NCBI GenBank assembly: GCA_046497275.1
Contig: JAWOFX010000061.1
Span: 30,001 to 62,000, forward strand
Source of the DNA: Promethearchaeia archaeon
GTDB taxonomy: Archaea > Asgardarchaeota > Lokiarchaeia > Sigyniarchaeales > SOKP01
Direction: 5' to 3'
Length of the DNA stretch: 32,000 nt
The number at the start of each line of letters is the position of its first letter. Position 1 is the first letter of the stretch. The notes under the pieces are model-generated. The model had not been told where the DNA came from, did no database searches, and saw only the letters and a program-made list of their open reading frames with translations. The position numbers were made by a program, and so were the translations under genes. Below are positions 1-4,806 of the stretch, in pieces.

Positions 1-172
1 TTTTACAAGAAGATTTCAATGCATAATCATTTTTTTGAGATCCTTCTGAATCTTCATCTAAGATTTTATCAATGTTTTGGATCATCTTCTCACTATTTTC
101 TATACACGCTCCACAAGAAGAGTTTTTTATAAAATGTGCACAAGTAAAACATTGAAGTTCATTCTGAGACAT
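1..172 (-). CDS. Partial Cys-rich small protein (CxxC-x8-CxxC), runs off the window start
   Basis: Manual translation from ATG at 172 gives MSQNELQCFTCAHFIKNSSCGACIENSEKMIQNIDKILDEDSEGSQKNDYALKSSCK..., open to the window edge. Not in the ORF track. Confidence 0.6.
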   Translation of the reverse strand, partial: MSQNELQCFTCAHFIKNSSCGACIENSEKMIQNIDKILDEDSEGSQKNDYALKSSCK

Positions 173-461
173 ATTTTTATATTTATTAATCGAAATTTAA
201 AATTTATAGTTTTTATCTATAAATATCAAAAGTAATTACAAATTGATAAATTTCAATGAGAGAATTTCAAATCAGAATTAAAAGATTAAGAAAGCTATAA
301 AAAAATTTTAATAGAGTTTCATAGGAATTCAATCAGAATATAATTTGTAGAAATATAAAATATTATAATTAAAAAATCAAGTTTAGTTTCGAATAAAATA
401 GAGAAATTTTTAAAATATATAATATTTCAAGATATTAAATAAACTGAATGGATTTATAATC

Positions 462-575
462 ATGAAAATACTTGTAAACATCAATAAGAGCAGCATAATG
501 CATTCAAATTGGGCGCTCTTAAAATCCTTAAGTTTATTGTTATATCTCTTAAACTTGTTTTTATTATTATTATAA
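462..575 (+). CDS. Candidate leucine-rich leader peptide (uORF) upstream of leuA, 37 aa; alternative start at ATG 498 (25 aa)
   Basis: Manual translation MKILVNINKSSIMHSNWALLKSLSLLLYLLNLFLLLL*. 14 Leu in total, 13 in the last 19 codons, ending TTA-TTA-TTA-TTA-TAA, 95 nt before the leuA start. Confidence 0.5.
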   Translation: MKILVNINKSSIMHSNWALLKSLSLLLYLLNLFLLLL

Positions 576-579
576 AAAA

Positions 580-633
580 CCTTCGGATGTTCTGTAAGGA
601 TAAAAAGTTCTAATTCCTATGAACAAAAGAAGG
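580..633 (+). promoter_or_regulatory. Irregular RNA hairpin between the uORF and leuA (candidate attenuator structure)
   Basis: Nested pairings read by eye: ccttc(580-584)/gaagg(629-633), tgttc(588-592)/gaaca(621-625), agga(597-600)/tcct(615-618). The 3' arm overlaps an AGGTGA motif at 631-636. Confidence 0.4.
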
Positions 634-670
634 TGATAAATATAAATTAATCACAAATAGGTAAATTAAA

Positions 671-2287
671 GTGACAGAAAAGGAAAATGAAGTAAATGTT
701 TCGATGATGATGGGAAAATTGAAGAAAAATCTAAATCTTCCTAAGAAAGCGTATTTCTTTGATACCACTCTTCGCGATGGAGAGCAAACTCCCGGAATTA
801 GTTTTACTCATGAAGAAAAGCTTTCTATTGCTCAAGCTCTCGATAAATTAGGGATAGATGTTATTGAAGCTGGCTTTCCTGTTATTTCTGAAGGAGATTT
901 TGCAGCTTGTAAAGATATTGCAAAATTAGGATTGAATTCTGAGGTGATTGGTCTAGCTCGCTTGAAAAAATTAGATATTGATAAAGTAATTGACGCAGAT
1001 ATGGATAGCATCCATGTATTTATTGCCACTTCAGACCTTCATATGGATAAAAAATTGAATATGACACGACAAGAAGTCTTGGATAGTATTGAAAACTATG
1101 TTACCTACTCGAAAGAACATTTTGATACTGTGCTATTTTCTGCTGAAGATGCTACGCGATCTGATTTAGATTTCTTGATAAAAGCGAATCAAATTGCTGT
1201 TGAGAATGGAGCAACTCGTATTAATATCCCAGACACAGTTGGAACCATAAGCCCATACGCGTTTGGATACATTGTAAGAAAAAATTATAACGTATTACCA
1301 AAAAATGTACGAATTGCTGTACACTGTCATAATGATTTTGGGCTTGCAGTTGCTAATACAATAGCTGGATTCGAAAATGGTGCTTCAGAAGCACAAATAA
1401 CGATTATGGGATTAGGGGAACGCGCAGGAAATGCTTCATTTGAAGAGACAGCAATGTCTTTGTGTGCTTTATATCAAATTCCAATGAATATAAATTCCAG
1501 ATTAATTTTCCCAACTGCTAAGCTGGTTGAAAGTTACTGTGGAGGAAAAATTAGAATAGGAAGATTAAAACCATTGATCGGTCAGAATGCATTCGCACAC
1601 GAATCTGGAATCCATGCACATGCTATGATACAAGATGCCAGAGCATACGAGCCAATTACACCTGAATTGATAGGAATTAAACGAACGGACGATGTTGAGC
1701 AAATTATAAAAAATTCGATTAGATTGGGAAAACATTCAGGAGGGCATGCGCTCAAAGCAAAATTAAAAGATTTAGTTATTCAAACTACTGGAGATCAGTT
1801 TAAAAAAATCTTCGAGCATGTGAAAAGTTTTGGAGATAAGGGGCATGAAGTTCAAGAAGAGGATTTTTTAGCAATTGTAAAAGATGTGATGGGGGAATTA
1901 CCGAAAAAGGAGCAATTTGTAATTCTGGATGAACTTACTGTTTTAACAGGATCTGTTACCCCCACTTCTACTGTTCGTTTGAAAATACGAAATAATGGAA
2001 ATTTCATAACTCGCACAGCGTCTTCTATTGGAGTTGGTCCAGTAGACGCTTCTATGAAAGCGATCGTAAAATGTTTCCAACCAATGAATAAAGTTCAGCT
2101 TTTAGATTATAATATTGACGCGGTCACCGGAGGAACTGAGGCTCTCGGACATGTTTCCATAGAATTAATGGATTTAGAAACAAATTATATAGTGAGCTCA
2201 AATGCGACTCATGAGGATATTGTTATGAGTTCAGTTTTGGCACTTCTTAAAGGATTGAACAAACTCGTGAAAGAGAAGAATAAATAA
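671..2287 (+). CDS. leuA: 2-isopropylmalate synthase / citramalate synthase family (DRE-TIM metallolyase with C-terminal regulatory domain)
   Basis: DTTLRDGEQTPG, HCHNDFG, GLGERAGN, HESGIH and GKHSG motifs, plus the C-terminal GVGPVDA...GGTEALG regulatory domain. LeuA and CimA cannot be separated by eye; the Leu-rich uORF favours LeuA. Confidence 0.85.
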   Translation: MTEKENEVNVSMMMGKLKKNLNLPKKAYFFDTTLRDGEQTPGISFTHEEKLSIAQALDKLGIDVIEAGFPVISEGDFAACKDIAKLGLNSEVIGLARLKKLDIDKVIDADMDSIHVFIATSDLHMDKKLNMTRQEVLDSIENYVTYSKEHFDTVLFSAEDATRSDLDFLIKANQIAVENGATRINIPDTVGTISPYAFGYIVRKNYNVLPKNVRIAVHCHNDFGLAVANTIAGFENGASEAQITIMGLGERAGNASFEETAMSLCALYQIPMNINSRLIFPTAKLVESYCGGKIRIGRLKPLIGQNAFAHESGIHAHAMIQDARAYEPITPELIGIKRTDDVEQIIKNSIRLGKHSGGHALKAKLKDLVIQTTGDQFKKIFEHVKSFGDKGHEVQEEDFLAIVKDVMGELPKKEQFVILDELTVLTGSVTPTSTVRLKIRNNGNFITRTASSIGVGPVDASMKAIVKCFQPMNKVQLLDYNIDAVTGGTEALGHVSIELMDLETNYIVSSNATHEDIVMSSVLALLKGLNKLVKEKNK

Positions 2288-2398
2288 TTTTATTGATTAA
2301 TAATTATTTTTTTGAGAGTTTTTAAATAATATTTCAAATATTGGGCTATAAAAGATATTAATTAAATATAAATCACATTTCTATTAAGAAAAAGGTAA

Positions 2399-2530
2399 AT
2401 GAAAAAAATGTTTGGTAAAAAGGAAGAACCATTAGAAATAGATCGTGAAACCTGGGAAAGATTAAGAGAATTTAGGAAAACGGGATTTAAAGAAAAATAT
2501 AAAGAAGTAGAAAATTATTCTGAATTATAG
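2399..2530 (+). CDS. Small 43-aa protein, possibly a ribbon-helix-helix-like fragment
   Basis: Manual translation MKKMFGKKEEPLEIDRETWERLREFRKTGFKEKYKEVENYSEL*, preceded by AAAGGT. The LEIDRETWERL segment resembles archaeal RHH starts. Confidence 0.4.
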   Translation: MKKMFGKKEEPLEIDRETWERLREFRKTGFKEKYKEVENYSEL

Positions 2531-2662
2531 TTAGAATTTTTAATACCCCTCAGAAAATTTGGGTTATTTTTTCTTAGATTCTCTAACTTAATATATTTGT
2601 AATTAATACTTTTCCTCAATAATTCTACATAAAATTATAATAAGAATCTCATAGAAATTTTT

Positions 2663-3571
2663 TTAAGCTTTTTTTGAGGATTTTATGTTTAAATCCATAA
2701 CATGGTTTTTAACAGTTATATAGATAAAAAACATCCAGATTATTAATCCAATATGTAATACATCATTTTCAGAGAACCAAATCCCTCCATCCCATAGGAT
2801 TTCAGTTATCCCTAGTAGATAATACAAGAAATAGATTCCTATAATAAAAATCAAAGAGATCCATATTATGATCAGATTCCGTTCCATTCGATTTCTTTTT
2901 GAATAATATCTCCAAATACTCCAAACTAAAAAGAAACCAATATTTGGACTTAAAAAGAGCACCATTAATTCAAACGAAATCAAAAACCTTACAGGGATAA
3001 AAGCACCACTTAAAATTATAGTGCTATATGTGAGGAAGTGACCTATAATATATATCAAAAATAGTTTTCGATATTTATTATTAACACTGGAGTGTAATTG
3101 GGCAATAAACATAGCATCAACACTTCCTACCGAAAGAATAAGATATATTATTTCATACCAGCTTGTCCAAATACATAAGCTATTACCAGCACATTTAATT
3201 TCATAACTAAATGCTTGATAACTCGTACCGGCAAATAAAGCTCCTAAACCCCATAAAATTAATGCAATACTCCACCAAAAGTGCGTAATCTGTTTTTTTC
3301 TGTCGAAAGACAGAATTATCCCAATAATAAGGGTTTGAAATCCAAGAAAATATACAATTAATGAAGAAGTTGGTTGAACTAAAGTTATTGAAATTCCAAA
3401 TAAATTAATGGTTAAACAAGGCTGAACTTGACACCATTGCTCTGGTGTTATTAAAGGTTCATATAGTAACTCTTGGAGGTGAACTCCAAATATTAAGCCC
3501 CAAATTATTAAAAAAGTGAGAAACCCCAAGAGAGCGAAGAAAATTCTAAGTTTTTGATTTCGATCCGTCAT
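2663..3571 (-). CDS. Uncharacterised polytopic membrane protein (about 7-8 TM)
   Basis: Alternating hydrophobic segments and a late SENDVLH motif. It starts 41 nt downstream of the aminotransferase on the same strand. Confidence 0.7.
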   Translation of the reverse strand: MTDRNQKLRIFFALLGFLTFLIIWGLIFGVHLQELLYEPLITPEQWCQVQPCLTINLFGISITLVQPTSSLIVYFLGFQTLIIGIILSFDRKKQITHFWWSIALILWGLGALFAGTSYQAFSYEIKCAGNSLCIWTSWYEIIYLILSVGSVDAMFIAQLHSSVNNKYRKLFLIYIIGHFLTYSTIILSGAFIPVRFLISFELMVLFLSPNIGFFLVWSIWRYYSKRNRMERNLIIIWISLIFIIGIYFLYYLLGITEILWDGGIWFSENDVLHIGLIIWMFFIYITVKNHVMDLNIKSSKKA

Positions 3572-3612: not shown

Positions 3613-4806
3613 TCACTGTAAAAAATCTTCTATTAAATCATACACTTCTTCAAGAATCTCTAAATCTGGCAAAAATGTTAATCTGAAATGTCCCTTACCA
3701 TATGACCCAAATCCAGATCCATATACACCACATACTCCTGTTTCTTTTAATAAATCTATTACGAATTCTTTATCGTTCTTCCATTTTTTAAATTCACCTA
3801 ATTGAATTTTAGGGAATAAATAAAAGGTTCCATCCGCATTAATGCAATTTAAACCTTCGATTTGTCGAAGACGTTTATAGGAATAGTCTCTCCTTCTTTT
3901 AAGATTGCTTACCATTGTTTCTGTATGGGGACCAGGATTCTTAAGTGCTTCAATAGCAGCATATTGTGCTATCGAATTTGCACAAAGCCTTGCTCTAGCC
4001 ATTTTCTCGATTCCTGCTTTTAATTCCTGTAATTGTGCTGTTGGATCAAAAAAATACATATACCCCAATCTCCAACCTGTTGCTAAATGCGCCTTAGAAA
4101 ATCCATTTAATCCAATTATGGGAACATCCTTACTAAGGGTTGCAGGGCAATTGTATTGTTTTTCGAAAACGATTTGATCATAAATTTCATCAGAAATTAC
4201 AGGAAGATTATATTCTCCAGCTATATTAATAATTTCTTTAACCTTCTTGATATCATATAGAACACCAGTAGGATTATTGGGAGAACTTATTAAAATAGCG
4301 GTAGTTTTACTAGTAATTTTATTTCTTAAATCATCGATGTCAGGTTCCCAGTCATTCTCTTCATCTAATTGATATTCAATTGGATTTCCATCGAAAAATT
4401 TTGCATAATTTATATAGATGGGATAAGCTGGTCCTGGTATCAATATTTCATTTTTATTTTCCAGCAATCCAGCTAAAAGAAAGAATATTCCCTCTGTTAC
4501 CCCGCTTGTAATTAAAATATCATCTGGTTTAATATCAATATCATTTTTCGATTTTTCATAGCGACAGACTTCCTCTCTTAATTCTGGGACTCCTAAAGAA
4601 TCAACGTAAAAGTTTTGACCCGCAAATGTAACATCTGATAAGGCTTGTGATATATAATGAGGGGTCTTAAAGTCGTAAATTACTGGATCACCAATATTCA
4701 AATGATATATTTTCTTTCCAGTTTTTTTTACTTCATTAGCAACAACAGTAATATCACGTATAGCGTATTCCAAATCTTGTAGGCGCCTTGAAACCATTTT
4801 ATCCAC
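3613..4806 (-). CDS. PLP-dependent class I/II aminotransferase, alanine aminotransferase-like
   Basis: EYAIRD N-terminus, LNIGDP, SPNNPTG, SDEIYD, and NGFSK with the PLP lysine followed by GWRLG. Confidence 0.9.
   Translation of the reverse strand: MDKMVSRRLQDLEYAIRDITVVANEVKKTGKKIYHLNIGDPVIYDFKTPHYISQALSDVTFAGQNFYVDSLGVPELREEVCRYEKSKNDIDIKPDDILITSGVTEGIFFLLAGLLENKNEILIPGPAYPIYINYAKFFDGNPIEYQLDEENDWEPDIDDLRNKITSKTTAILISSPNNPTGVLYDIKKVKEIINIAGEYNLPVISDEIYDQIVFEKQYNCPATLSKDVPIIGLNGFSKAHLATGWRLGYMYFFDPTAQLQELKAGIEKMARARLCANSIAQYAAIEALKNPGPHTETMVSNLKRRRDYSYKRLRQIEGLNCINADGTFYLFPKIQLGEFKKWKNDKEFVIDLLKETGVCGVYGSGFGSYGKGHFRLTFLPDLEILEEVYDLIEDFLQ

Follow-up and report, generated by a model that had tools for sequence, protein, structure and literature searches.

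A reading frame of 37 codons at positions 462-575 on the forward strand of the window, the 32,000-nucleotide stretch of Promethearchaeia DNA analysed here, is probably a cis-acting, leucine-sensing leader peptide that controls leuA, the 2-isopropylmalate synthase gene that follows it. Judged from sequence, this upstream ORF (uORF) is apparently translated as the first cistron of the leuA mRNA, and the time that ribosomes dwell on its Leu codons would report the supply of charged tRNA-Leu and thereby set leuA expression.

The uORF (MKILVNINKSSIMHSNWALLKSLSLLLYLLNLFLLLL, 37 codons plus TAA) has 13 Leu among its last 19 codons, a Leu-rich control tract at 516-572, and its 3' end reads TTG TTT TTA TTA TTA TTA TAA, so that the tract closes with a terminal run of four TTA codons (561-572) immediately before the stop; from the stop to the GTG at 671 where leuA begins is 95 nt. 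The coordinates, the Leu content, the four TTA codons and the 95-nt gap are all as described in an earlier note on this DNA. The shorter version of the ORF that the same note had offered, starting from ATG 498, does not use the homologous start: it is the codons at ATG 462 (ATG AAA ATA CTT...) that match the starts of the orthologous ORFs (ATG AAA ATG CTT...).

The host assembly comprises 3.85 Mb in 188 contigs with 30.4% GC, the 498 nt upstream of leuA are 19% GC, and TTA is the commonest Leu codon of the genome (48.5%), the last two of which would favor a chance ORF in AT-rich, low-complexity DNA. Given the AT-richness of the leader, Leu density was therefore tested against the genome's own intergenic ORFs, a control that the earlier note had proposed. 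The genome was masked with ORFs of at least 100 aa, which left 4717 intergenic ORFs of at least 20 codons, and among these the uORF at 462-575 ranks first and stands alone in reaching 13 Leu per 19-codon window; the runners-up, three cases, have 11. With both strands of the 3.85-Mb genome counted, the string (TTA)4 itself turns up only 39 times. Because of this rank, together with synonymous conservation, varied stop codons and a frame that is open in all of the orthologous leaders examined below, we regard the chance-ORF reading as already refuted and give it next to no probability. For reference, an ARAGORN tRNA census of the assembly detected only 13 tRNAs.

The downstream gene (671-2287, forward strand) encodes 538 aa and begins with GTG, at the position where its orthologues have ATG. 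Its product matched NF002085, the curated model for the 2-isopropylmalate synthase subfamily, with 562.9 bits (cut-off 517); the match spans residues 17-536 and takes in the C-terminal regulatory region. Against the citramalate synthase model TIGR00977 it reached 211.9 bits (cut-off 450), and it falls far short of the thresholds set for the citramalate and homocitrate synthase models. The earlier proposal that the gene is LeuA rather than CimA thus agrees with NCBIfam, and the leader would also support annotating the 671-2287 paralogue as a leucine-specific synthase. The Shine-Dalgarno (SD) site of leuA, TAGGT at 658-662, lies 9 nt before the start, and its AGG is almost invariant in the leader alignment; genome-wide, AGGT, GAGG and GGTG show a 5-7 fold enrichment some 9-16 nt before gene starts. 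LeuA proteins of this family begin with about 12-16 extra conserved residues (M-x-E-K-x-E-I-x-V-S-x-M-M; 671-720 in the window) that precede the part matched by the family models, and this N-terminal extension is coding sequence, since the variation there is synonymous. Two further short ORFs were seen in this part of the window. One, of 43 codons (2399-2530, forward strand; MKKMFGKKEEPLEIDRETWERLREFRKTGFKEKYKEVENYSEL), lies 3' of leuA with a T7 tract between them and could be a real small protein; the other (MWCIWIWIWVIW, about 3694-3733, reverse strand), with 4 Trp, lies upstream of a membrane-protein gene (2663-3571, reverse strand), overlaps the 3' end of an aminotransferase gene and probably arose by chance from a repeat.

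LeuA orthologues were collected from MAGs of Promethearchaeota/Promethearchaeia (Asgard archaea) in two separate searches, and after removal of identical leaders 55 distinct ones remained, with LeuA identities of about 64-86%; these leaders are phylogenetically related, and the counts that follow overstate their independence. In all 55 an ORF closes with a Leu run, and its distance to leuA is usually 79-132 nt. Leu is encoded at the last four codons in 52, 53, 51 and 49 of the 55, respectively, and the run comprises 4-7 consecutive Leu codons. The codons used are TTA, TTG, CTT, CTC, CTA or CTG, with switches between the TTR and CTN families, and where codons at the last four positions are not TTA, 36 of 51 still specify Leu. 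The earlier note had suggested looking in front of orthologous leuA genes for a conserved uORF rich in Leu whose Leu codons change synonymously; the leaders of the set, without exception, carry a Leu-rich uORF, and its Leu codons do vary in that way. The stop codons vary as well (TAA in 40, TAG in 8, TGA in 7). Over the span of the uORF there are no in-frame stops in any of the 55 leaders, versus 241 and 115 in the other two frames, and the probability of such a frame being open by chance is about 6% per leader. An in-frame ATG lies 25-40 codons before the stop in 53 of 55 leaders, and an SD-like site precedes the ATG in 36 of those 53. The element is absent from more distant orthologues of the same order (58-60% identity), from two paralogue loci, and from most other archaeal phyla. 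A programmed frameshift or read-through into leuA was considered and rejected: the -1 frame meets a stop at 611-613, and the distance between uORF and leuA is not kept modulo 3.

The hydrophobic C-terminus of the peptide, and the conservation of its ORF, SD site and promoter, might also suggest that the ORF makes a small hydrophobic peptide with a function of its own, such as a membrane micro-protein, and is simply a neighbor of leuA. The peptides share little except Leu, however, and in 38 of the 55 there are charged residues or His among the last 17 (for example LELCLDELDLLLLLL), making a conserved membrane helix unlikely. The position of the uORF relative to leuA and to the hairpin P2 described below is moreover fixed, the peptide has no family match, and the covariance model of that hairpin matches this genome only in front of leuA; we consider a free-standing micro-protein very improbable.

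Upstream of the uORF, a BRE/TATA-like promoter element, GAGAAA TTTTTAAA (GAGAAATTTTTAAA), is found at 401-414, and the motif RAAAATTTTTAAT recurs in the orthologous leaders. A TATA-like motif lies 37-63 nt before the uORF ATG (mode 52-58) in 38 of 53 leaders, and 55 nt before it here; transcription is predicted to start near 433-437. No conserved promoter was found between uORF and leuA in the leaders; the sole TATA-like string between P2 and leuA (AAATTTAAA) precedes the ATG by about 12 nt, too little for a TATA box, and an internal promoter at that place was rejected.

Two helices are conserved around the Leu tract. The upstream one, P1, pairs the SD/AUG region of the uORF (5' arm, 438-455), which holds the SD-like GGA at 450-452, 9 nt before the ATG, with codons 21-26, where the Leu-rich block begins (3' arm, AAAUCCUUAAGUUUAU, 522-538). 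Cognate arms, that is, arms taken from the same leader, pair with a mean of -10.7 kcal/mol versus -7.4 kcal/mol for non-cognate ones, a difference reached by none of 5000 permutations, and the covariation between lineages is obvious by eye (CUAAGGAAUAAAA/UUUUAUCCCUUAG, AAUUCUAAUGGGA/CUUCAUUAGAAUU, AAGAAGGAAA/UUUCUCUUCUU). Most orthologues also have an inner helix of P1 that pairs codons 3-6 with about codons 15-19. On these folding predictions P1 would hide the uORF's own ribosome-binding site.

The downstream helix, P2, is a long imperfect hairpin in all leaders, beginning 1-7 nt and ending 44-62 nt after the stop codon. In the window it occupies 579-634 (pairs 579-584/629-634, 588-592/621-625 and 597-600/615-618) and starts 4 nt after the stop. 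Its folding energy relative to dinucleotide shuffles gives a z of -3.5 here and a mean of -4.0 (range -2.1 to -6.0) across leaders. RNAalifold on a plain MAFFT alignment returned no structure, an alignment artefact, and P2 was recovered by folding the leaders singly and by a covariance model for which 12 sequences were used. When 17 leaders were re-aligned to the model, 82.5% of cells were paired versus 70.2% in shuffles, with none of 500 shuffles reaching the observed value and slid controls at 47-58%, although an alignment fitted to the model favors the structure; 15 of 17 pairs show compensatory changes. A test that needs no alignment gave the same answer, with cognate arms at -20.1 and non-cognate arms at -12.9 kcal/mol (0 of 5000 permutations). 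Given the G-U pairs and strand-specific covariance-model scores (81.6 bits for the sense strand versus 27.8), P2 can be placed in the sense mRNA. The model has one match in this genome, at the leuA leader locus. The base pairs of P2 have the pyrimidine on the 5' side and the purine on the 3' side in 93% of cases, and the inner stem is conserved (AUAAGA/UCUUAU); no conservation was found in the loops across leaders.

With both helices conserved around it, the Leu tract (about 45 nt) can be regarded as a linker between P1 and P2. In 51 of 55 leaders, 30-41 nt separate the 3' end of P2 from the start of leuA, and this A-rich spacer carries the leuA SD. A second, SD-like purine tract, GAAGGTGAT at 629-637, is partly hidden in the 3' arm of P2. 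For an assumed anti-SD sequence, predicted duplex energies average -6.7 kcal/mol for the P2 3' arm, -4.4 for the leuA SD, -3.2 for the uORF SD and -2.2 for the genes of the genome. The anti-SD had to be assumed since the 3' end of 16S rRNA is missing from the assembly, and the SD consensus used, GGAGGTGA, is backed by k-mer enrichment. The assembly holds only the 5' half of a 16S rRNA gene (G000:C106:3345-4170, L152), cut at a contig end, and because of this truncation the anti-SD is unreadable from this genome.

How a ribosome on the Leu codons might be read out downstream was approached through the known kinds of switch. An Rfam scan of window positions 1-3000 returned sub-threshold noise only, and no match to the Leu_leader family (RF00512) appeared even at E up to 10. 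At least 4 T within 12 nt after P2 occur in 8 of 55 leaders, and not in this window. In the convergent-gene 3' flanks of this genome, runs of at least 6 T are present in 47%, versus 17% of 5' flanks, and hairpin enrichment at its gene 3' ends is absent (mean z -0.33 versus -0.27). Given that oligo-T without hairpins marks 3' flanks in this host, and that P2 lacks a following U-tract, P2 is not a terminator by the host's own grammar, and we rejected it as an intrinsic or oligo-T terminator.

We also scanned 28 pairs of leader segments for co-evolution, and only P1 (as two overlapping segment pairs) and P2 emerged. None of the alternative pairings co-evolved (tail with SD, p = 0.93; P2 3' arm with SD, 0.54; tail with 5' arm, 0.20; tail with 3' arm, 0.30), and no co-evolving pair was found between leader segments and the leuA 5' coding region. 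A stem between the Leu tail and the leuA SD, as in the LEU-element model, was likewise rejected, with a mean z against shuffles of +0.38 and cognate and non-cognate energies of -5.27 and -5.60 kcal/mol (p = 0.93). So was a switch in which opening of P2 would lead to a sequestered SD, as the predicted accessibility of the leuA SD is unchanged when the stop plus 12-27 nt is masked (0.65, 0.60, 0.59).

Of the components of a classical attenuator, then, the upstream ORF with cognate codons is present, and neither the hairpin with its U-tract nor an antiterminator pairing was found. Without an oligo-U terminator and without a conserved alternative pairing, the leader is not a terminator/antiterminator switch of the bacterial type. 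The earlier suggestion of amino-acid-sensing attenuation is thus well supported for the Leu sensor, that is, the conserved uORF and its Leu codons, and is not supported as regards bacterial attenuation strictly defined.

In accessibility predictions, the leuA ribosome-binding site went from 0.53 to 0.64 (paired p = 1e-7) once a ribosome-sized stretch over the terminal Leu run was masked, a small gain (0.11), and masking the uORF start gave no rise. Given that the leuA SD is better than average (-4.4 versus -2.2 kcal/mol), leuA has no obvious need of help. From the geometry of the ribosome, a last Leu codon in the A site places P2 at the mRNA entrance, and P2 is within reach only of ribosomes that occupy the final one or two Leu codons or the stop. 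Because P2 sits at the entrance, decoding of the stop would need 1-5 bp of P2 to be frayed.

These considerations lead us to a tentative first choice of effector, modeled as translational or RNA-state control, to which we would attach no more than a fairly low probability, as we would to any one particular effector. When Leu is scarce, ribosomes would park on the tract, P1 would stay open and more ribosomes would load; the parked ribosomes would keep the U-rich tract off the A-rich leuA ribosome-binding region and would press on the base of P2, and leuA expression would go up. When Leu is plentiful, the ribosome would terminate and leave, P1 and P2 would close, and expression would drop to a basal level.

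An equally serious possibility, and one that we hold just as tentatively, is that the same Leu-sensing leader is read out co-transcriptionally. Once the pioneer ribosome has terminated, the naked pyrimidine- and U-rich tract might be bound or cut by aCPSF1/FttA, or the polymerase might halt near P2, and transcription would end short of leuA; a stalled ribosome would mask the tract and let the polymerase read through to leuA, in analogy to tnaC/Rho. Given that P1 hides the uORF ribosome-binding site once it has been transcribed, the arrangement fits a single transcription-coupled pioneer round, such as is known for the E. coli trp leader. The Leu tract is 49% T versus 32% in coding DNA and is flanked by pyrimidine-rich helix arms, oligo-T serves as terminator in this genome, and conserved T4-T8 tracts follow its Trp leader, described below; in addition, Lokiarchaeota aCPSF1 reportedly substitutes for its Methanococcus counterpart, a factor acting at U-rich motifs, and is itself said to act at such motifs (PMC13675443). 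On the other hand, runs of at least 5 T are present in 20% of Leu tracts versus 68% of real 3' flanks, the short T-runs near P2 are confined to the 8 leaders mentioned above, the gene 3' ends of this genome lack hairpin enrichment, and the tract, with a P(unpaired) of 0.41, is not predicted to be especially single-stranded.

It was also reasonable to consider that P1 and P2 form a structured leader RNA bound by a protein or small ligand, with the ORF translated without being the sensor, or with the Leu codons as a by-product of constraints on the RNA. Two covarying helices, the conserved inner-stem sequences (AUAAGA/UCUUAU) and the strong strand bias at the base of P2 are consistent with such an element, and protein binding is the view favored for a look-alike actinobacterial leuA leader (PMC1262725). 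Against this, the best-conserved feature is the identity of Leu across two codon families rather than a nucleotide string, the frame, ATG, SD and stop are all kept, the P2 loops are not conserved, and there is no Rfam match. The same genomes, moreover, carry a cognate Trp uORF before trpB2, and an unrelated uORF with a Leu run precedes leuA in Altiarchaeota. We therefore think a protein- or ligand-binding element unlikely, and retain the Leu-sensing leader as the preferred reading.

Among known systems the Leu-sensing leader most obviously invites comparison with enterobacterial leuL (RF00512) and with trpL, hisL, thrL and ilvL. As in leuL, a short ORF with a Leu run (4 in LeuL, 4-7 here) precedes the first gene of the leucine pathway, and sensing would presumably occur through ribosome dwell on hungry codons; as in trpL, the leader's ribosome-binding site is masked by downstream leader RNA, here in P1. 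The differences are that the Asgard leader lacks a terminator hairpin with U-tract, a conserved antiterminator and an Rfam match, that its Leu run sits at the very end of the ORF, against the stop and the hairpin, and that the host is an archaeon with hairpin-less oligo-T terminators. A ribosome arrested at or close to the end of the leader ORF alters the RNA just past the stop in ermC/cat translational attenuation, where that RNA is a hairpin, and in tnaC/Rho control of the tna operon, where it is a site for factor loading. What arrests the ribosome there is a drug, or free Trp that acts on the nascent peptide, whereas here the cue would be the supply of Leu-tRNA.

For the LEU element before actinobacterial leuA, Seliverstov et al. 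(2005, PMC1262725) proposed that the Leu run and the leuA SD pair as a base stem, and they favored protein binding because mutation of the Leu codons left regulation unaffected. As cited there, Leu-codon mutations in the Streptomyces leuA leader gave results inconsistent with classical attenuation, which by analogy may serve as a warning for look-alike leaders. The two have in common a compact conserved RNA structure and no obvious terminator. In the Asgard leader, however, a stem between Leu run and SD has neither shuffle nor co-evolution support and a small predicted effect on accessibility only, and P1 and P2 are two separate hairpins with no pseudoknot found. In the mycobacterial leaderless sORFs with polycysteine tracts, stalled ribosomes block an mRNA structure, giving a translational read-out with no terminator (Canestrari et al., bioRxiv 10.1101/834739), and there, too, a short ORF rich in cognate codons stands before biosynthetic genes. 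The mycobacterial structure sequesters the downstream ribosome-binding site, whereas P2 lacks the true leuA SD and contains only an SD-like tract 30-41 nt upstream; the Asgard uORF, in turn, has a 5' leader and an SD, sequestered in P1.

Sensing of amino-acid supply by leader peptides is a textbook bacterial mechanism. Literature searches for its archaeal counterpart returned bacterial examples only, and the terms 'attenuation' and 'leader peptide' are absent from the text of a 2026 cross-domain review of transcription termination. On balance we lean towards the view that Asgard archaea, and independently at least Altiarchaeota, use ribosome-read leaders with cognate codons (Leu/leuA and Trp/trpB2), that the effector is not the bacterial switch, and that the Leu tract is clamped between a helix that hides the uORF's own ribosome-binding site and one that abuts the stop. 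If true, the prokaryotes most closely related to eukaryotes would possess a distinct, archaeal kind of attenuation. The Asgard leader would then offer a handle on the functional coupling of transcription, translation and RNA folding in this lineage, on the behavior of archaeal ribosomes at hungry codons, and on how such control operates without intrinsic hairpin terminators, and the covariance model and peptide pattern could be used to find further leaders.

When the uORFs of the whole genome were scanned for enrichment in single amino acids, one that is rich in Trp (…FWCWQWPWRWQ; 5 Trp in 10 codons) came third overall and had the top rank for Trp. This uORF lies on contig C1 of the same genome (G000:C1, L032:1561-1701, reverse strand), with its stop 147 nt before a TrpB-like (TrpB2) gene (L032:1-1413, reverse strand) that scores 637.7 bits against NF009057. 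A Trp-rich uORF (at least 3 Trp per 10-codon window; WxWxW pattern) is found upstream in 21 of 28 loci examined in relatives, with a covarying hairpin (GGCGUU..AACGCC) across the stop codon, followed by conserved T4-T8 tracts. The His-, Thr-, Met-, Arg- and Val-rich uORFs of the scan precede unrelated genes and occur at chance level, and they were rejected as cognate leaders, leaving the Trp uORF with trpB2 as the only cognate pair in that scan. About 55-65 nt upstream of the trpB2 start there is a motif, GCATTAATAnTATTGAATTCCAAT, conserved in L041 and its orthologues, whose UCCAAU is complementary to a conserved AUUGGA after the Trp-leader hairpin; it could be a long-range pairing, a promoter or an operator.

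At the leuA loci of Altiarchaeota (L131, L132, L140, L142, L144, L150) the uORF is unrelated in sequence (…GNP(I/V)LxLLLLLRLR(A/E)), and a GC-rich hairpin follows directly after the Leu run and spans the stop codon. A second archaeal phylum thus appears to have a Leu leader of independent origin. In another Asgard family (L153, L157, L159, L160, L162; LeuA 48-50% identical), a conserved 30-codon ORF starting MNSLLLLQLQML is located about 230 nt upstream of leuA and may be a differently built Leu leader; nothing comparable to it was found in families f10 and f21. The leuA genes of Bathyarchaeota (L143, L145, L149), finally, are preceded by a conserved small Leu/Phe-rich ORF (...LNLxILxALxEALFLxLxLF...) that ends 19-54 nt before leuA.
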